Origin: Candidatus Humimicrobiia bacterium | GTDB taxonomy: Bacteria; Actinomycetota; Humimicrobiia; JAHJRV01 | Assembly (NCBI GenBank): GCA_049647085.1 | Contig: JBARXA010000016.1 | Location: 310,593 to 374,592, forward strand | Direction of reading: 5' to 3' | DNA: 64,000 nt | Part shown: positions 4,769 through 62,680 of the stretch, one piece after another | How positions within the stretch are numbered: position 1 is the stretch's first letter | Layout of the letters: each line of letters begins with the position of its first letter | The notes under the pieces: model-generated | Database searches by the model: none | What the model saw: the letters and a program-made list of their open reading frames with translations, nothing else | What the model was told of the DNA's origin: nothing | Program-made: the position numbers and the translations under genes

Positions 4769-4880
4769 AAACTACCCCCTAAATCTTTAAATCTATATCC
4801 CTTTGCAATCTTTAATATTTTTTTCTATTTATGTTTAAGTATACCTCTTTTTACTCTGACCATTTATTTTATTTATTATT

Positions 4881-4908
4881 AAAAAACCCCTCGCCTTAGG
4901 ACGAAGGG
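4881..4908 (-). terminator. intrinsic terminator after rplT (possibly the terminator arm of a T-box-like attenuator for pheST)
   Basis: Minus-strand RNA CCCUUCGUCCUAAGGCGAGGGG forms a ~9-bp stem including G-U pairs, followed by UUUUUU. Confidence 0.6.
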
Positions 4909-4914
4909 TATTTC

Positions 4915-4934
4915 TCCATGGTACCACCTAAGTT
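4915..4934 (-). promoter_or_regulatory. T-box-like motif (AACUUAGGUGGUACCAUGG) immediately 5' of the terminator
   Basis: Resembles the T-box consensus AAUUAGGGUGGUACCGCG; the UGGU bulge matches a tRNA-Phe discriminator A. No Stem I or specifier loop identified. Confidence 0.3.
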
Positions 4935-4980
4935 GGTTTTTGAATAACCCACTCAGTGCTAAGTACTTAACTGTAAAAAA

Positions 4981-5340
4981 TTATGCTGAAATTTTTTCCT
5001 TTGCAATATCTACAAGTTTAGAAAAAGCTTTTGGGTCATTTACTGCAATCTCAGACAAAACCTTTCTATTTATATCTATTTCAGCAAGTCTAAGACCATT
5101 TATAAATCTTGAATAACTCAACCCATGTTCTCTAACAGCTGCATTAATTCTCATTATCCATAATCTTCTAAAATCCCTTTTTCTTCTTTTTCTATCCCGA
5201 TAAGCATATTTCATAGATCTTAAAACTTGAGTCTTCGCTACCCTATAATTCTTACTTTTTGAACCTCTATATCCCTTTGCAAGTTTCAGTATCTTTTTTT
5301 TCTTCTTATGTTTAAGTACACCTCTTTTTACTCTAGTCAT
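4981..5340 (-). CDS. rplT: 50S ribosomal protein L20
   Basis: MTRVKRGV... start with GGAG RBS 5 nt upstream; the ORF-track start at 5370 is 10 codons too long. Confidence 0.93.
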
Positions 5341-5366: not shown

Positions 5367-5561
5367 TCAAATACCTAATTTTTGTCTTGTTACTTTAGCG
5401 TCACACTTTTTTAGGGTTTTTTCTGTTTTTAAACGCCTTTTTCTTACAGATGACTTTTTCATCAACTTTTTACTCATTGTTGGACTTTTATGCACAATTT
5501 TTCCACTACCACTAATTTTAAATCTCTTTGCTGATCCCTTGTGAGTCTTCATCTTTGGCAA
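5367..5561 (-). CDS. rpmI: 50S ribosomal protein L35
   Basis: 64 aa, [15 protein letters not shown] matches the L35 N-terminus. Confidence 0.9.
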
Positions 5562-19502: not shown

Positions 19503-19559
19503 GAAATTGCGGAGCCTGTTCCGATAGAGATTGCTCTCGAGCGAAGTGAAGGGATTGAG
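19503..19559 (+). repeat. copy of the repeat-family 5' segment plus one unit
   Basis: GAAATTGCGGAGCCTGTTCCGATAGAGATTGC aligns with GAGATTGCACAGCCTGTTGTGGGATAGATTGC at 26773. Confidence 0.55.
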
Positions 19560-19625
19560 TATTAACCTAACTTTTTAACAATACATATTATTTTATTGTA
19601 CATTAGATTATTTAAAATCCCAGAT

Positions 19626-21464: not shown

Positions 21465-21673
21465 GAGATTGCACAGTTTATTCCTTCCCCTTTCCTTCAT
21501 TCCGTTCAAGTACAGACTTTACACTCGAGCTTCAATTCCCCTCCCTTTATGGGAGGGGGTAGGGGGAGGGTTTGATGGAGATTGCCACGCCACCTTCAGT
21601 GGCTCGCAATGACAACCGGGATCTTGTTCGCAATGACAGTCAGGAACTTGCTCCGAACAGGCTGTGCAATCTC
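21465..21673. repeat. MITE-like element with 12-bp perfect terminal inverted repeats (GAGATTGCACAG / CTGTGCAATCTC)
   Basis: The terminal motif recurs at 26773 and in variant form at 19503; the interior contains the GC-rich hairpin/G4 element and GCAATGAC units. Confidence 0.55.
21533..21570 (-). repeat. GC-rich 38-nt hairpin/G4-motif repeat, copy 1 (reverse orientation)
   Basis: Exact reverse complement of the 38-mer at 62598-62635; the plus strand reads GGGAGGGGGTAGGGGGAGGG. Confidence 0.8.
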
Positions 21674-21695
21674 ATTAAAAATAGATTTTAGACTA

Positions 21696-21731
21696 TGTCA
21701 TTGCGAGGAGCGTTAGCGACATGGCAATCTC
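21696..21731 (+). repeat. unit of the GTCATTGCGAG...GCAATCTC repeat family
   Basis: GTCATTGCGAGGAGCGTTAGCGACATGGCAATCTC. Confidence 0.6.
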
Positions 21732-21788
21732 ATTTAAATTTATTATATTTAACATTTTGTTTTAGTAACAACAAAATTAAAACTTCTA

Positions 21789-25901: not shown

Positions 25902-26669
25902 TTACCTCCCCACTTCTTCAACTTCTTTATACCATTTTTTCTTTATACCAACCTTAGACCTTATTTTCCATTTCAGGCTTTTAGGTTCACCTTCTATTCT
26001 TTCAAGTATTTTATCAATTCTATCTGCAACTATTTTTCCATTTTCATCCGTCAGAGATTCAAATTCACCAAGGAAATCTTTAACTTTTTTAAGGTTGGTC
26101 GTCACTGTATAATAATACCCCCAATCTTTTGATAAGAGCTTAGATATATAGTTCATGTTTACTGTTTCTTCTTCCTTATCTCCAACATCATGCTCGAGTA
26201 GCATTATAATAGTATCTTTGATATCCTTTGGATTTATCTCTACTATCTGCATCTTTTCTAATAATATATCAGTTAGAGTGATGGTAGGGTCATCCAATTC
26301 CAATCTATTTCTAAAATCAACCTTATGGCACATATCTAACTCATTAAAAAAGATATCTACTTGCCAACCTTTTTCATCACTCCAGTAGATTTGTCTTTTT
26401 TTACCATATAATGCAAAAAATCTTGGATTTATTGGTTCATAACCTAAGTCTTTAAAAAACTCTCTCATTCCTTCTCTAAACTTTCCATATGTCATTAAAT
26501 CTATATCAGTAAGTGGTCTCTTCATTTCATCATATAGATACCTATATTTTGGACTATGATTTTTTACTGCAATTGAACCCAATAATCTAAAAATTATCCC
26601 TTTTTCTTTGCCTTTTTCAATTATCTTAAATGCTTCTTCAACAAAAGCTTTGTCTCTTTCAGGATCCAT
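25902..26669 (-). CDS. hypothetical protein, possible nucleotidyltransferase fold
   Basis: LLGS...LTDIDL followed by QVDIFF resembles the GS/DxD/D pattern of Pol-beta-type nucleotidyltransferases, but the spacing is atypical. 2-nt gap to the downstream phosphoesterase. Confidence 0.35.
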   Translation of the reverse strand: MDPERDKAFVEEAFKIIEKGKEKGIIFRLLGSIAVKNHSPKYRYLYDEMKRPLTDIDLMTYGKFREGMREFFKDLGYEPINPRFFALYGKKRQIYWSDEKGWQVDIFFNELDMCHKVDFRNRLELDDPTITLTDILLEKMQIVEINPKDIKDTIIMLLEHDVGDKEEETVNMNYISKLLSKDWGYYYTVTTNLKKVKDFLGEFESLTDENGKIVADRIDKILERIEGEPKSLKWKIRSKVGIKKKWYKEVEEVGR

Positions 26670-26772
26670 AACCCCTCCTATTTTTATTAATTATATCAGT
26701 AAAATTTAAAGAATCAATATATTGCATTACCTTTTATCACAATTACAAAATGTTAAAAATAATAAATATAAA

Positions 26773-26913
26773 TGAGATTGCACAGCCTGTTGTGGGATAG
26801 ATTGCTTCGCTTACGCTCGCAATGACATACTAGAATCTCGCTCCTCGCAATGACACATTGTCAACATATATTTTTATCATTGCGAGCAAGCTCCTGGTTG
26901 TCATTCAGGAGAG
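26773..26913. repeat. cluster of GAGATTGCACAG / GCAATGAC / GTCATTGCGAG repeat units
   Basis: Starts with GAGATTGCACAGCCTGTT, identical to the terminal repeat of the element at 21465-21673, followed by at least three GCAATGAC/GTCATTGC units in both orientations. Abuts the 3' end of the aldolase gene. Confidence 0.6.
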
Positions 26914-27542
26914 CTTTCCTTTAATATCTTTTCTAAAGCTCTTACTTGCTTATCTGATAGAATTTTAGGTTCACCTACCTGAAGAGCTTTATGATAAATT
27001 TTTGCTGATTCTTCTACTAATATCGCAATTAAAACTGCATTCGATAATGAAGAGCCTATTGTTAAAACTCCATGACTTTCTAAAAGAACTGCTGATCTAT
27101 TAGAAAGTTTTTTGAGTGATTTTTTTGCCAATTCTATTGAACCAGGAAGTGCAAAATCCACAACGGGAATATCTCCACCTACTGAAAAGAAAGTCTCAAT
27201 ATGTATAAGAGGAATGCTCTTTTTAAGTACAGCAAAGCATGCGGCATATGGAGAATGCGTATGAGCAATTCCAAAGATATCCTCCCTATTTTTATAAATT
27301 TTTAAATGAATGGGAGTCTCATATGATGGTTTATTTTTACCTTCCACTTTATTTCCATTTATATCTAAAACTACAATGTCATCTGGATTTAAAAATTCCC
27401 TGAATACTCCATGTGGAGTAACAAAAATATATCCCGTTTCTTTATCCCTCAAACTAAAATTACCAGTTGTTGGGACAACTAATCCTAATTTTTCAGATTT
27501 TTGAGCCCAGAAAATAACTTCATTTTTTAAATCTTCATACAT
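26901..27542 (-). CDS. class II aldolase/adducin-family protein (fuculose-phosphate aldolase / ribulose-5-phosphate 4-epimerase-like)
   Basis: 213 aa with the HTHSPYA metal-binding motif. Confidence 0.75.
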   Translation of the reverse strand: MYEDLKNEVIFWAQKSEKLGLVVPTTGNFSLRDKETGYIFVTPHGVFREFLNPDDIVVLDINGNKVEGKNKPSYETPIHLKIYKNREDIFGIAHTHSPYAACFAVLKKSIPLIHIETFFSVGGDIPVVDFALPGSIELAKKSLKKLSNRSAVLLESHGVLTIGSSLSNAVLIAILVEESAKIYHKALQVGEPKILSDKQVRALEKILKESSPE

Positions 27543-27590: not shown

Positions 27591-27644
27591 GTAGGGCAAT
27601 CCTTTAGGGTTGCATTATCAAGCAAGACTAAAGTCTTACCCTAC
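27591..27644 (-). other. structured element: closing stem GTAGGG/CCCTAC enclosing two hairpins, followed by a U-tract on the minus strand
   Basis: Hairpins GCAAUCC-UUUA-GGGUUGC and AAGAC-UAAA-GUCUU inside a 6-bp closing stem, between tRNA-Leu and the aldolase start. Confidence 0.4.
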
Positions 27645-27704
27645 AAATAAATATATTCAGTCTTGTACTACATAATTAATAGTTAAAAAATCCACTTAAA
27701 AAAG

Positions 27705-27792
27705 TGGTGTCGGAGGGGGGACTTGAACCCCCACGAGCTACTCACTCACAAGGTCCTCAACCTTGAGCGTCTACCAATTCCGCCACTCCGAC
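27705..27792 (-). tRNA. tRNA-Leu (GAG)
   Basis: 88 nt with long variable arm; anticodon stem CAAGG/CCUUG, loop UUGAGGA; CCA encoded. Confidence 0.88.
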
Positions 27793-43387: not shown

Positions 43388-43485
43388 TTAATTTTCTCCT
43401 TTCTTTTAAAAATGTTTATTTTAAATTTAAAAATTAATATTAAGGAAAATCTTATCATTTTACCAGATTCTTTAATATATTTGAT

Positions 43486-43520
43486 GAGATTGCTTCGTCG
43501 CTTACGCTCCTCGCAATGAC
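43486..43520 (-). repeat. 35-nt unit of the GTCATTGCGAG...GCAATCTC family (reverse orientation)
   Basis: Plus strand GAGATTGCTTCGTCGCTTACGCTCCTCGCAATGAC; between gap and whiA. Confidence 0.6.
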
Positions 43521-43561
43521 AAATAAATAACAGATATCATCTATAGGGTTTCTAATATTTT

Positions 43562-45855: not shown

Positions 45856-47763
45856 TTAAAAGCGGTGAAAATGTCTATATATTCTTTGAGCGACTTTAGA
45901 AGGTATTCCTTTAATATCATATAGTTCTTGAAGTGTTGCTTTTGCAACATATTCTGCTGAACTAAAATGTTTAATCAATTTTGCTTTTCTTTTTGGACCA
46001 ACTCCATAAATTTTATCAAGAATTGATGTTATCATATCTTTGTTTCTAAGATTTCTGTGATAAGAAATGGCAAAGCGATGAGCTTCATCTCTAATATTTT
46101 TTAAAAGTAAGAGCGCTGATGAATTTTTTTTAAGTATGAGAGGATATTTCTTGTTTAATAAATGTATTTTATCAGGTTTTTTAGATAGTCCAATAACAAA
46201 GATATTTTCTAAACCTAATTCTTTTAAAACTCTTTTTGTAATTTGCAGTTGACCCTTTCCACCATCTATTATCACAAGATCAGGGATCAAATCAAATGCA
46301 TTAAATTCTTTATATTCCTTTTTATAAACTTTATTATCTTTTTTATATTTGTAGGTTTTTTCATCTATCTTATATGGATATACTAACTTTTTAAATCTTC
46401 TCTCAATTACTTCACTTATCATATGAAGATCGTCTTTAACAGATATATTTTTTATTTTAAATCTCCTATATTGTGATTTCTTACAAATACCATTTAAAAA
46501 TACAACCATTGAGCCAACAGAATGAGAACCTGCTAATGTTGATATATCATAACATTCAATCCTGTAAGGAATTGAACTAAGACTTAATCTATTTTTTAAT
46601 GAAACAAGTGCATCTTTCTCCCTCATTTTTTTTAGCTTTTCCTTGTTCAGAAATTGCTTAATTTCAATTTCAGCATTTTTTTCTGCTAACTCTACTAATC
46701 TTCTTTTCTCCCCTCTTCTCGGAATCTTTATGTCAATATATATTTCCTTTTTCATGCTCAACCAATTTTTTATGATCTCCATTTCATAAATATTTGTTGA
46801 TAAAATAATCTCCTTAGGATATCTAAAAGCTGAATTATAATACTGTTTGATAAAGAGAGTAAGGAGCTCGCTTTTATCAAACTCTGATGTCTTTTCTAAA
46901 ATAAAGCAATCTTTACCTAATAAAAATCCCTCTCTTATTGTAAAAAGTTCAACACATGCTATGTCTTCGTTTAATACAATAGCTAATATATCAATATCCA
47001 GTCTTTGTATTGTTGCAACTTTTTGTTTCTGAGTAAGTTCATTTATTGCAATAAATTGATCTCTATATCTTGCAGCATCCTCAAATCTTTTTTCACTTGA
47101 TGCTAACTTCATAGATTTCTCTAAACCTTGCTTGATTTCTTTTCTTCTTCCATTAAGAAATTGAATGATTATATTTATTATTTCTTTATATTCTGTTTTT
47201 TTTACTTTCCCGGTACACGGAGCTAAGCATCTATTTATATGATAATTCAGACACGGTGAACCAGTCTTTTTTCCTGGCTTTGATCCTTTACAACTTCTAA
47301 TTTTAAATTTTTTATGAATCATATCCAAGATTTTTCTGACATTTTGAGGTCTTGTATGGGGACCAAAATAGATATATTTTGGATTGGATGTTTTTCGTGT
47401 AAAAAATACCCGAGGATAATCTTCTAAAATAGAGATAGCAATATAGGGATATCTCTTATCATCTTTTAAATTCACATTATATTTTGGTCTGTGTTCTTTT
47501 ATCAAAGTACTTTCAAGTATTAATGCTTCAACTTCATTATCAGTCACGATGAAATCTAATTTGTCTGCATGAGATAGCATATCAGTTATCTTTGTAGGTA
47601 GTTTTTGAGACTTTTGAAAATAGCTTTTAATCCGTTTCTTTAAGGACTTAGCTTTACCAATATATAAGACTTCCTCTAAAGAATCATAGAATATATAAAC
47701 ACCTGGTTTATCAGGTAAATAATTTAGACTTTCTTTTATCTTTATTGGAGCTTTTCTAAACAT
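45856..47763 (-). CDS. uvrC: excinuclease ABC subunit C
   Basis: 635 aa; N-terminal GIY-YIG region (PGVYIFYD...LYIGKA), C-terminal HhH. Confidence 0.93.
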
Positions 47764-50581
47764 TTAATAAATCCTTTAAATACATACCTGTATAAGATTT
47801 TTTATTTTTTGCAACTTCTTCTGGTGTACCTTCAGCTACTATCCATCCCCCTTCATCACCACCTTCTGGTCCAAGATCAATTATATAATCAGCTGTTTTT
47901 ATTACATCTAAATTATGTTCAATAACAATTACTGTATTTCCCTTATCAACTAATCTGTTTAATACTTTGAGTAGTTTCTTTATATCATCAAAATGAAGTC
48001 CTGTTGTTGGTTCATCCAATATATAAATAGTTCTACCTGTAGCAATTTTTGATAGTTCCTTAGAAATTTTTACTCTTTGAGCTTCTCCCCCTGAGAGTGT
48101 GGTAGCAGATTGACCCAATTTTATATATCCAAGACCAACATCATCAACTAATTGTAATTTTCTTTTTATTCTTGGAATGTTTTTAAAAAACTCTAATGCT
48201 TTTTTAACACTCATATCTAAAACTTCTGAAATATTTTTTCCTTTAAAAGTTACATCTAAAGTTTCATTATTGTACCTTTTTCCCTTACATACATCACAGG
48301 TTACATATATATCAGGCAGAAAATGCATCTCTATTTTAATATTCCCATCACCCCTGCATGCCTCACATCTTCCACCCTTTACATTAAAACTGAATCTACC
48401 TTTTTTATAACCTCTAATTTTTGCTTCTTGAGTCTCCGCAAAGACCTCTCTGATAGGAGTAAATACTCCTGTATATGTTGAAGGATTTGATCTTGGAGTT
48501 CTTCCAATTGGTGATTGGTCAATCTCAATTACTTTATCAATATTTTCTATACCTTTAATGTCTTTGTGCTTACCAGGTTTAAACTTTGACCTGCTATGTA
48601 ATCTATTCATTAGTGCTCTATATAAAATTTCATCAACTAATGTGCTTTTTCCTGAACCCGAAACTCCAGTTATACAAATAAATTTACCAAGTTTAAAAGA
48701 AACATCTATTTCTTTTAAATTATGTTCTTTTGCACCTAATATAACCAAATCTCCTTTATATTCAATTCTTCTCTTATTTGGAACATTGATCTTTTTCTTA
48801 CCACTTAAATACTGTCCAGTTATAGAGGTAGGTTCATTTTTAATATCTTCTATAGTTCCAAGTACAACAACATCCCCGCCACGCTCTCCAGCCCCAGGAC
48901 CTAAATCAACTATAAAATCTGCCTGGTTAATGGTTTCTCTATCATGTTCTATCACAATTAAAGTATTTCCTAAGTCTCTTAATCTTTTTAATGTTTCAAG
49001 AAGTCTCTTATTATCCCTGTTGTGAAGACCTATACTTGGTTCATCAAGAATATATAAAACCCCAATCAAACTTGTTCCAATTTGGGTAGCTAACCTTATT
49101 CTCTGAGCTTCCCCACCGGAAAGACTTCTTGTTTCTCTGTCAAGCGTTAGGTAGTTTAAACCCACATTTTCCATAAAGGCTAATCTTTCTTTTATTTCTT
49201 TTAATATTCTTCTTGCTATTATCTTTTCTTTATTTGTTAATTTAAGATTCTCAATAAAAGATTTGCACTTGGAAACACACATTTGGGTTAGTTCATAAAC
49301 ATTTTTTCCACCAACTGTTACTGCTAAGCTTTCAGGTCTAAGTCTTGCACCATTACATTCAGGACATGGGCTTATGCTCATATATTCTTCAATTTTTTCC
49401 CTACTATATTCAGACTTTGTCTCTGTGTATCTTCTTTCTAAATTATTAATTACACCTTCTACAGAAGTAGGCCATCTTACTACTGTTCCATTATATCTTT
49501 CATACTCAACAAGCACTCTTTCCCCTGGTAAACCATACAAAATTATATTTTGTATATTATTATCTAAATCACTAAATGGTGTTGAAAGACCAAAATTATA
49601 TTTTTTAGAAAGAGCCTTTATATACATTGGAAAAAAGGCTGATGAACTATCTCTCCATAATTTAATAGCTCCCTGTGATAAACTTAGATTTTTATCAGGT
49701 ACTACTAAATCTGGATCTATTTCTTGTTTAAAACCCAACCCATCACAATAAGTACAAGCACCAATAGGACTATTAAAAGAAAACATCCTTGGAGAAAGTT
49801 CCTCAAAGCTTATACCACAATCAAGACAAGCAAATTTTTGAGAAAATATCAAATTTTCTCCATCAATTATCTGAATATAGACTATCCCATCTGATTCCCT
49901 TAATGCTGTTTCAATCGAATCAGCGACTCTTTTTCTTATATTGGATTTAGACACCAATCTATCTATTACTATTTCAATATCATGTTTTTTATATTTTTCC
50001 AAAAGAATCTCATCTTCCAAACTTTTTAGCTCTCTATCCACTCTAACTCTTACATAACCCTTCCTTCTTATCTGATCAAATAGATTTTTATATTCCCCTT
50101 TTCGACCCTTAATTACTGGTGATAGAATCATATATTTTGTACCTTTAGAAAGTTTTAAAACCTTATCTATTATCTGTTGTGGTGATTGTTGAGATATTTC
50201 TTTCCCACATATATGACAATGAGGCTCTCCAATTCGAGCATAAAGTAATCTAATATAATCATATATTTCAGTTATAGTCCCCACAGTTGAACGAGGATTT
50301 TTAGTAGCACCTTTCTGGTCAATTGAAATAGCAGGAGAAAGACCTTCAATATAATCAACATCAGGTTTTTCCATCTGCTCAAGAAATTGTCTTGCGTAAG
50401 CAGAAAGAGATTCTACATACCTTCTCTGACCTTCAGCATAAATGGTGTCAAATGCAAGACTGGATTTACCAGAACCACTGATACCAGTTATTACAATCAT
50501 CTTATCTCTTGGAAGATCTAAATTTATATTTTTTAAATTGTGCTCACGAGCACCTCTTATAATAAGCTTCTTCTCTTTCAT
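47756..50581 (-). CDS. uvrA: excinuclease ABC subunit A
   Basis: 941 aa; tandem ABC ATPase modules, zinc-finger cysteines, [12 protein letters not shown]-terminus. Confidence 0.95.
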
Positions 50582-61241: not shown

Positions 61242-61392
61242 CTTTTAGAAAATAAATTAAAAGTCTCACTTTTTAATTTAGTGAAGTTATAAGTTATTAA
61301 AAATTAAATTACATTTAAGAATTAAATTAGTACAATATTGTCTTAATAATAACACAATAAAAAAAGCATTTATTAGAATTTTAAATATACAC

Positions 61393-61488
61393 CCTCCCCC
61401 TACCCCCTCCCATAAAGGGAGGGGAATCATAAGAGAAGTTCTCATTACCCCTCATATAAAGGGAGGGGAATCATAAGAGAAGTTCTCC
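61393..61488 (+). repeat. GC-rich hairpin/G4-motif repeat, copy 2, followed by a tandem partial duplication
   Basis: CCCTCCCCCTACCCCCTCCCATAAAGGGAGGGGAAT, then a roughly 45-nt unit (TAAAGGGAGGGGAATCATAAGAGAAGTTCTC...) repeated about twice. Confidence 0.8.
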
Positions 61489-61627
61489 TTACCTCTCCTA
61501 TAAAGACATTCTATATCAAATGAAAAATAAGTATTAAACTGTTAAAAAATAAAAATATTTGAGTCATACCTTGAAAATTTAATAAGAGAGGAATTGAGTA
61601 AAAATATAAATTTTTTTTAAATCTTAT

Positions 61628-62509: not shown

Positions 62510-62597
62510 AATTATTAATCTATTTTAATTTAAATTTAATATTTTAAAATCTAAGAGTTCTAATAGATTTGTGGCATGGTTTCGAAGACATTTCAAA

Positions 62598-62635
62598 CCC
62601 TCCCCCTACCCCCTCCCATAAAGGGAGGGGAATTG
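62598..62635 (+). repeat. GC-rich hairpin/G4-motif repeat, copy 3
   Basis: CCCTCCCCCTACCCCCTCCCATAAAGGGAGGGGAATTG, identical to the reverse complement of 21533-21570. Confidence 0.8.
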
Positions 62636-62680
62636 AGTGAAACGAAGAGAGAAACTATGCCCAAATCTTCCAAAAGTTAT

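Follow-up and report, generated by a model that had tools for sequence, protein, structure and literature searches.

In a genome of 30% GC, a short, GC-richer island coincides with the 3' end of an aldolase gene; what is it, and has it supplied the end of that gene? The question is raised by a 64,000-nucleotide stretch of contig JBARXA010000016.1 (positions 310,593 to 374,592; assembly GCA_049647085.1) from Candidatus Humimicrobiia bacterium, which is the whole stretch analyzed here and is referred to as the window. The island, at window positions 26774-26914, is 141 bases long and consists of a mosaic of short repeat modules. The gene, identified as an open reading frame (ORF) with a match to profile PF00596, encodes a class II aldolase/adducin-family protein of 213 amino acids (26901-27542, minus strand). 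A first-pass annotation, made from the sequence alone, had described a cluster of palindromic units at this place and had suggested that the last of them contributes the C-terminal residues of the aldolase or displaced its original stop. The analysis presented below indicates that the cluster belongs to a known repeat family and is not a new kind of element. With a probability of roughly 0.8, it is made up of gene-less copies, assembled as a mosaic, of a hairpin repeat with a very wide distribution, that of the system formed by the nuclease Ssn and the "Ssn-related motifs" (SRM).

The repeat cluster and the end of the aldolase gene

The ends of the modules are conserved and read (T)GTC-ATTGC-GAG…GCAAT-CTC on the minus strand, and the sense strand of the units reads GTCATTGC…GCAATCTC. 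Followed in the direction of the aldolase gene, the cluster begins with the left part of a 43-nt module (26883-26914, minus strand), which reads GCTCTCCTGAATGACAACCAGGAGCTTGCTCG on the minus strand and CAAGCTCCTGGTTGTCATTCAGGAGAGC on the plus strand, ends at 26914 and contains a 7-bp hairpin CTCCTG…CAGGAG. The remainder of a CTCGCAATGAt motif and a 21-nt AT-rich spacer (26855-26875) come next on this strand. Read on the plus strand, the motif is the half-site aTCATTGCGAG (26876-26886), which corresponds to the 5' half of a unit with one mismatch and is complementary to positions 26844-26854 on the other side of the spacer; pairing between the two is predicted by folding. Beyond the spacer are located a truncated hairpin unit (26833-26854, minus strand; GTCATTGCGAGGAGCGAGATTC, or GAATCTCGCTCCTCGCAATGAC on the plus strand), the 5' part of which is also found in the allele of a related locus (L128), and a complete hairpin unit (26798-26826, minus strand; GTCATTGCGAGCGTAAGCGAAGCAATCTA, or (T)AGATTGCTTCGCTTACGCTCGCAATGAC on the plus strand). 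The complete unit has the tag (T)GTC, a basal stem ATTGC/GCAAT and the tail CTA, and the stem is present in its predicted single-stranded DNA (ssDNA) fold (-3.7 kcal/mol). The cluster is closed by the right part of the 43-nt module (26774-26791, minus strand; AACAGGCTGT-GCAATCTC). On the plus strand this part reads GAGATTGCACAGCCTGTT, a string that had been equated with a terminal inverted repeat at 21465. The equation has to be corrected: the 18-mer on the plus strand matches the opposite arm at 21656-21673 as its reverse complement, and the arm at 21465 shares the first 12 nt only.

The expected frequencies of the motifs were obtained from 200 first-order Markov simulations of the 64-kb, 30% GC window. 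The sequence CGCAATGAC was found 6 times against 0.065 expected, CTCGCAATGAC 5 times against 0.005, and GAGATTGCACAG 3 times against 0.005, so these motifs are far commoner in the window than chance would give. All the strings quoted in the first-pass annotation were found where it had placed them, and its cluster of palindromic repeat units is borne out both by the sequence and by this excess.

The stop codon of the aldolase gene is a TGA (TCA on the plus strand, 26901-26903) that corresponds to positions 4-6 of the 43-nt module; together with the last four codons, S-S-P-E (26904-26915), it lies within the last module of the cluster. The eight closest homologues (80-96% identity) split cleanly into proteins with a KI tail and proteins with a repeat-derived tail. 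The six of the first type (P0003-P0008; 80-85% identity) are 210 amino acids long and end in …KKI* or …EKI*, and in the DNA read for this type (L001, L005, L006 and L129) the gene has no repeat and is followed by AT-rich DNA. The window protein, P0001 (locus L003; 96% identity) and P0002 (L128; 87%) end in …K(E/K)SS(S/P)E*, and the genes of this SSxE type then run into the repeat (DNA of L002-L004, L128, L130 and L131). The DNA alignment of the two types is colinear through …ATATTAAAG(G/A)AAA and breaks exactly at the start of the repeat (26914), past which the filled sites read GCTCTYCTGAATGAC… and the empty ones TTTGATATTT…. Additionally, in P0002 (237 amino acids) the repeat-borne TGA is changed to TGG, and the protein reads on for 24 residues into the repeats (…WQPGPGSQRQKYVLTMCHCEER), its …CHCEER being the translation of a unit. 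In L128, the contig fetched for P0002, the TGA is present.

The earlier suggestion about the gene end therefore holds, since the four codons and the TGA are located within a module that recurs at 21631-21673 and the repeat-free orthologues, when their 3' ends were aligned, did not share the same end. Judged from these alignments, the outermost module evidently donates four aldolase codons and the stop, and the cluster is present in one aldolase lineage only. The module would have entered the gene 5 nt before its ancestral stop (…AAA|ATT TGA…), turning I* into SS(S/P)E*. The aldolase would thereby differ by four residues in its tail and by a new stop, and its mRNA would have some 3'-terminal structure; the consequences at this locus are probably incidental. 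Ogata and co-workers reportedly described, in 2000, palindromic elements of Rickettsia that are inserted in frame into genes. In both cases a small palindromic repeat joins a coding sequence and the gene is not destroyed, but here the repeat provides the last four codons and the stop only, and no internal peptide segment.

Among close relatives, whose aldolases are 87-100% identical, three structural alleles with identical outer boundaries were observed at this site. In L002, L003 and L004 the site is occupied by a seamless 43-nt module, which in L003 reads GAATGACAACCAGGAGCTTGCTCGGAACAGGCTGTGCAATCTC and is identical at 38 of 43 positions to window 21631-21673. In the L128 allele the left part is followed by the spacer and by a single complete unit, GTCATTGCGAGGAGCGTTAGCGACATGGCAATCTC, which is identical at all 35 positions to window 21697-21731. 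The third allele, shared by the window, L130 and L131, is composed of the left part, the spacer, the truncated unit, the complete unit and the right module part, and it is 91 nt longer than that of L003. No target-site duplication is visible among the three alleles. Further modules may have been gained, lost or converted inside the module that was inserted first, and insertion, precise loss and ectopic conversion are all possible routes between the alleles.

Further copies of the repeat are located at 19503-19560, 21465-21733 and 43484-43521, all three of them intergenic. The largest cluster of the family (21465-21733) is made up of a 209-bp segment that has the 12-mer GAGATTGCACAG in inverted orientation at its two ends (21465-21476 and 21662-21673), of complete units recognized by their sequence at 21578-21613 (minus strand) and 21697-21731 (plus strand), and of the second copy of the 43-nt module, identified by alignment at 21631-21673. 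Its insertion boundaries could not be set by comparison with L003, as the AT-rich middle of the intergenic region (21.4-21.8 kb) is not alignable. A solitary complete unit (43484-43521, minus strand; ATGAGATTGCTTCGTCGCTTACGCTCCTCGCAATGACA on the plus strand) sits between two minus-strand genes, and a degenerate relative of the unit (19503-19560; GAAATTGCGGAGCCTGTTCCGATAGAGATTGCTCTCGAGCGAAGTGAAGGGATTGAG) lies directly downstream of an alanine dehydrogenase gene. Five well-formed units, namely the three just mentioned in the largest cluster and at 43 kb and those at 26798-26826 and 26833-26854, read TGTC-ATTGC… on the sense strand. In the window units the base 3' of the palindrome is C (GCAAT-C-TC or GCAAT-C-TA), and the interior of 12-22 nt pairs poorly. 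Five of the six complete units are on the G-rich minus strand (GC skew of the plus strand, -0.19), a number too small for a strand bias to be judged.

Relationship to the Ssn-related motifs

In order to find units of the same plan elsewhere, a DNA pattern scan (GAGATTGC N8-38 CTCGCAATGAC) was performed on one genome per species. It gave at least 120 loci with at least 165 units, the labels of the genomes cover more than 15 phyla, and all the listed units are built as GAGATTGC-YWCG-(variable stem-loop)-C(T)CGCAATGAC. Among the matches listed, 40 inverted pairs have their GCAATCTC ends facing each other, versus 10 with facing tags and 11 in tandem. Clustering of the ORFs among these matches (at least 120 loci) revealed no recurrent transposase family; the families that recur are common housekeeping ones and a small GIY-YIG gene (PF01541, E 1e-16 to 1e-18). 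The latter was present in four of the loci listed, and in all four it is placed exactly between an inverted pair of units, one pair having the variant stem GAGATCC…GGATGAC.

This arrangement is known from Neisseria. Chenal et al. (Nat Commun 2025; PMC11893778) described ssnA, a 94-amino-acid single-domain GIY-YIG gene flanked by the dRS3-containing repeat NTS and, in other homologues, by SRM; at least one motif was present nearby in 71% of the homologues that they surveyed, and motifs were present on both sides in 42%. SsnA of Neisseria meningitidis binds the hairpin as ssDNA only and on one strand only, has no action on double-stranded DNA or RNA, and makes its cut a few nucleotides to the 5' side of the hairpin. 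Critical for cleavage are the three bases that precede the palindrome; for binding, no base is more critical than the C that follows it (PMC11893778). Transformation of Neisseria with DNA carrying NTS is restricted by the system, and the NTS-ssnA-NTS layout resembles an insertion sequence, for which mobility was hypothesized only (PMC11893778).

The association was tested independently on 80 metagenomic loci (L132-L211) that were picked by protein similarity alone. A hairpin of the general form RGA-X4…rcX4-TGAC, facing the gene at a distance of up to 150 nt, was found upstream of the GIY-YIG gene in 57 of 73 loci and downstream in 47 of 73; it was present on either side in 63 of 66 loci and on both sides in 33 of 66. 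Shuffled flanks gave 16 hairpins in 3200 (0.5%). The stem tetramer varies among the loci together with its compensatory partner (TTGC, TTCT, TCCT, TGCT, TTCC, CCCT and CTCT), while the tag GTC is preserved, as is the C that follows the palindrome (the +1 base is C in 304 of 395 hairpins). These conserved bases are the positions critical for cleavage and binding in PMC11893778. Hairpins of the ATTGC class flank 34 of the 80 protein-selected ssn-like loci, L165 and L174 being clear examples. The nuclease of L165 is 58% identical (E 3e-37) to that of L162, which is flanked by canonical Neisseria-type NTS repeats, and the two therefore belong to one protein family. Searches with the nucleases returned only distant UPF0213 proteins from the PDB and no match in NCBIfam. 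In the literature, nothing relevant was found on the strings GTCATTGCGAG or FARNDK, and a search for COG2827, UPF0213 and YhbQ gave noise only.

Two observations on the family were made in passing. Locus L040, from a Planctomycetota genome, contains a unit-ssn-unit element with a direct duplication of 126 nt on its two sides (4877-5002 and 5436-5561, 96% identical). By translation the duplicated sequence is apparently the 5' end of pheT, and its downstream copy runs into a long ORF, consistent with an intact gene; the duplication may be a footprint of how such elements insert. In Chloroflexus and Caldatribacterium (L013, 1372-1508; L078, 554-2200) the units form tandem arrays, for example of 36-nt units every 50-51 nt with near-identical spacers of 14-15 nt, which superficially resemble CRISPR arrays.

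The units of the window share with SRM the 5' (C/T)GTC tag, a stem beginning with AT and the C right after the palindrome; like SRM, their copies are dispersed, mostly intergenic and clustered, and inverted copies directly flank a GIY-YIG gene of about 95 amino acids in other genomes. They differ in that the stem is ATTGC followed by GAG, and not ATTCCCGCG, and in their longer, poorly paired interior. The SRM system overlaps with the CGTC-tagged repetitive extragenic palindromic (REP) sequences (PMC11893778, PMC3733652), which Di Nocera et al. (BMC Genomics 2013; PMC3733652) divided into families CGTC-1 to CGTC-4 and which include Neisseria dRS3 and Rickettsia RPE-4 and RPE-6. Their terminal CGTC/TGTC tag takes no part in the pairing, their stem begins with A-T, and the tail is formed by 3 nt that are not paired; they occur mostly as "HH" inverted dimers, with negligible tandem dimers and some intragenic copies (PMC3733652). 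The window units are built in the same way, as TGTC + AT… + CTC. Inverted dimers are likewise the commonest arrangement (40/10/11 among the matches listed), whichever of the unit ends corresponds to the "head" of PMC3733652, and no tyrosine transposase is associated. However, the tail is CTC here and CCA there, and the stem of 8-9 bp with a loop of 4-5 nt in those families is replaced here by 5 conserved bp and an interior of 12-40 nt. Because only 5 bp are conserved and the interior is poorly paired, the window units are placed next to the four CGTC families and not in one of them, the families having been compared by their description.

Sequence comparison thus assigns the window units to the SRM family, the evidence being their architecture and the direct association of ATTGC-class hairpins with ssn genes in other genomes. 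The general plan of such a repeat is a 5' tag (T/C)GTC, a basal stem A-X4/rcX4-T (here ATTGC/GCAAT), an interior that varies and a tail rich in C (CTC). By analogy with SsnA, a cognate Ssn nuclease would bind and nick the units when they are exposed as single strands, here those of the minus strand. Recognition of the ssDNA hairpins in trans by that nuclease, much as REPs are recognized by REP-associated tyrosine transposases (RAYTs), would be the most plausible route by which the units spread.

It is important to mention that several points weigh against this assignment. The published SRM pattern, HGTCWYN(0-2)YYVSBRHN(0-5)WNVSBRGN(0-2)RNCYNB, has 0 matches in the window on either strand, and none of the three window units tested matches it, whereas the Neisseria NTS does. 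The window units escape the pattern because it requires pyrimidines where the ATTGC class has G; as it also matches only 4 of the 80 protein-selected ssn loci, the window class is a common SRM branch that the published pattern misses. No ssn gene or pseudogene was found in the 64-kb window or in about 80 kb of related loci; the sole GIY-YIG match is the N-terminus of UvrC, encoded by uvrC (45856-47763, minus strand) next to uvrA (47756-50581, minus strand). The window units are therefore gene-less copies. Among the 80 metagenomic loci, no low-GC ssn locus could be attributed to the window's own lineage. The closest sequenced relative of this lineage is a metagenome-assembled genome labelled "Actinobacteria bacterium" at NCBI. 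The ssDNA hairpins predicted for single window units are weak and not better than those of shuffled sequences (-0.8 to -8.2 kcal/mol, z +0.7 to -1.6), the 5-bp ATTGC/GCAAT stem being predicted in most of them. Neither a target-site duplication nor a clean empty site could be defined at the aldolase end, because the AT-rich flanks are not alignable between the lineages, and several orders of events could connect the three alleles. Finally, mobility of SRM is a hypothesis only, raised in PMC11893778.

Alternative explanations

Four other explanations were considered, all of them much less likely than a cluster of gene-less SRM copies. The first is that the cluster acts at the RNA level, as a set of 3'-end hairpins that terminate or stabilize the aldolase transcript and are selected for that role. 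Three of the four window sites follow closely on a minus-strand gene and precede the next gene, with complete units that are mostly in sense orientation to the upstream gene. At 26.8 kb the cluster is followed by a good promoter (TTGATT-16-TATAAT, 26717-26690) for the next minus-strand gene (25902-26669), and REP-type repeats act in such a way in other bacteria (PMC3733652). However, the sole predicted terminator-like site is on the plus strand, antisense to the aldolase. Folding of the whole cluster gave -43.5 kcal/mol as RNA (z -1.77 against shuffles) and -20.4 kcal/mol as DNA (z -1.66), and no statistically convincing structure was obtained for either the region or the units. The long imperfect hairpins proposed in the first-pass annotation are weakly supported by the folding energies. 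A search of the whole window against Rfam at gathering thresholds returned tRNAs only, and at E values up to 10 the segment 26600-27000 gave sub-threshold snoRNA noise and no match to an RNA element. Three different structures are present at this site among close relatives, so no particular fold is conserved, and SsnA does not bind RNA (PMC11893778). Selection for an RNA-level role is thus unlikely; such a role would be compatible with an SRM cluster and would then be a side effect.

The perfect 12-bp inverted repeats that bound the 209-bp segment at 21465-21673, three copies of which were counted where 0.005 were expected, could suggest a MITE (a miniature transposable element with inverted repeats) of the DDE type, the aldolase-side copy being a solo or rearranged end. 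Against this, GAGATTGC is merely the conserved 3' end (GCAATCTC) of a hairpin unit that is found across phyla, and the interior of the segment consists of other units and of an unrelated G/C-run repeat. No target-site duplication was seen at the flanks of 21465 and 21673 (…AGTAA| and |ATTAA…). Among the unit-bearing matches listed, neither a recurrent transposase family nor a related insertion sequence was present, and the sole gene located precisely between inverted units is the GIY-YIG nuclease. We consider a DDE-type MITE very unlikely.

In REP sequences and REPINs, short hairpins are recognized as ssDNA, inverted doublets are the likely mobile unit, a single nuclease gene has copies of its own repeat on both sides, and many other copies have no gene. 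For relatives of the RAYTs, and not for Ssn, activity in transposition has been demonstrated. In outline the two systems work alike, as all four features would also apply to the repeats described here. A classical REP/REPIN mobilized by a RAYT (Y1, IS200/IS605-type) could accordingly be considered for the cluster, the units being short GC-rich imperfect palindromes in intergenic DNA, mostly arranged as inverted dimers and in mosaic clusters, with nested arrangements and several alleles at one site. In place of the GTAG tag and the HUH tyrosine transposase of the RAYT system, however, the tag is (T/C)GTC and the flanked gene encodes a GIY-YIG nuclease, with no Y1 transposase family recurring among the matches listed (at least 120 loci). 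CGTC-tagged repeats were also noted to have no transposase of their own, with neither RAYT genes nor other transposase genes of the IS200 type on their flanks (PMC3733652), and we regard mobilization by a RAYT as highly improbable.

Ordinary sequence divergence of the aldolase tail, with a repeat that merely abuts the gene, is hardly tenable: the tail comprises only 4-5 residues and the C-termini of distant homologues are variable, but the TGA and the codons before it lie within a sequence 88% identical to a module copy 5 kb away, the alignment of the coding sequence with six orthologues fails precisely where the repeat begins, close homologues (80-96%) split cleanly into three proteins with a repeat-derived tail, two of them confirmed in DNA, and six with the KI tail, of which three were read in DNA and carry no repeat, and the TGA-to-TGG variant continues into the unit translation …CHCEER.

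Neighbouring repeats and significance of the locus

Other repeated sequences were also observed in the window. A 48-nt inverted repeat (85%) has one arm at 26734-26781 and the other at 21724-21771; each arm consists of a GCAATCTC end and about 40 nt of AT-rich flank, and together they bracket a 5-kb block of five genes, which encode an amino-acid permease, proteins of 164 and 143 amino acids, a metallophosphoesterase-like protein of 315 amino acids and a protein of 255 amino acids. In L001 (GCA_030609525.1, 6001-7963) the block is missing and alanine dehydrogenase directly follows the aldolase. A simple tie between the block and the repeats was rejected, since the block is present in L005, where the aldolase end has no repeat, and absent from L001. 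The G/C-run palindrome ACCCTCCCCCTACCCCCTCCCATAAAGGGAGGGGAAT at 21532-21575, 61391-61491 and 62593-62653 represents a second family of dispersed repeats that has no sequence relationship to the first; two tandem 44-nt copies are present at 61404-61491, and one copy is nested within the 21465-21673 segment. Moreover, a 53-nt palindrome (27593-27645; GTAGGGCAATCC…GGTAAGACTTTAG…CCCTAC) with a GTAG-like 5' end is located between the aldolase start and the tRNA-Leu(GAG) gene (27705-27792, minus strand).

As for the repeats at the aldolase end, a bolder proposal can be made, and we regard it as doubtful: the alleles may be the trace of gene-less modules that were recently and precisely gained or lost, Ssn-type nucleases may mobilize the repeats in trans, and Ssn together with SRM may be an unrecognized class of transposable elements with an ATTGC-stem branch. 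The site with its several alleles is a place to look for movement of these repeats, which is so far a hypothesis only.

For the family as a whole, the ATTGC-GAG class is among the commonest hairpins beside ssn-like genes in the metagenomic sample, so that published SRM counts may be underestimates, and it reaches an uncultured lineage of 30% GC. In annotation, such repeats probably also give rise to spurious short ORFs and to wrongly placed gene ends. For the organism itself, the locus illustrates cleanly, in a natural setting, how a selfish hairpin repeat has rewritten the end of a housekeeping-type gene, by four new codons and a new stop.

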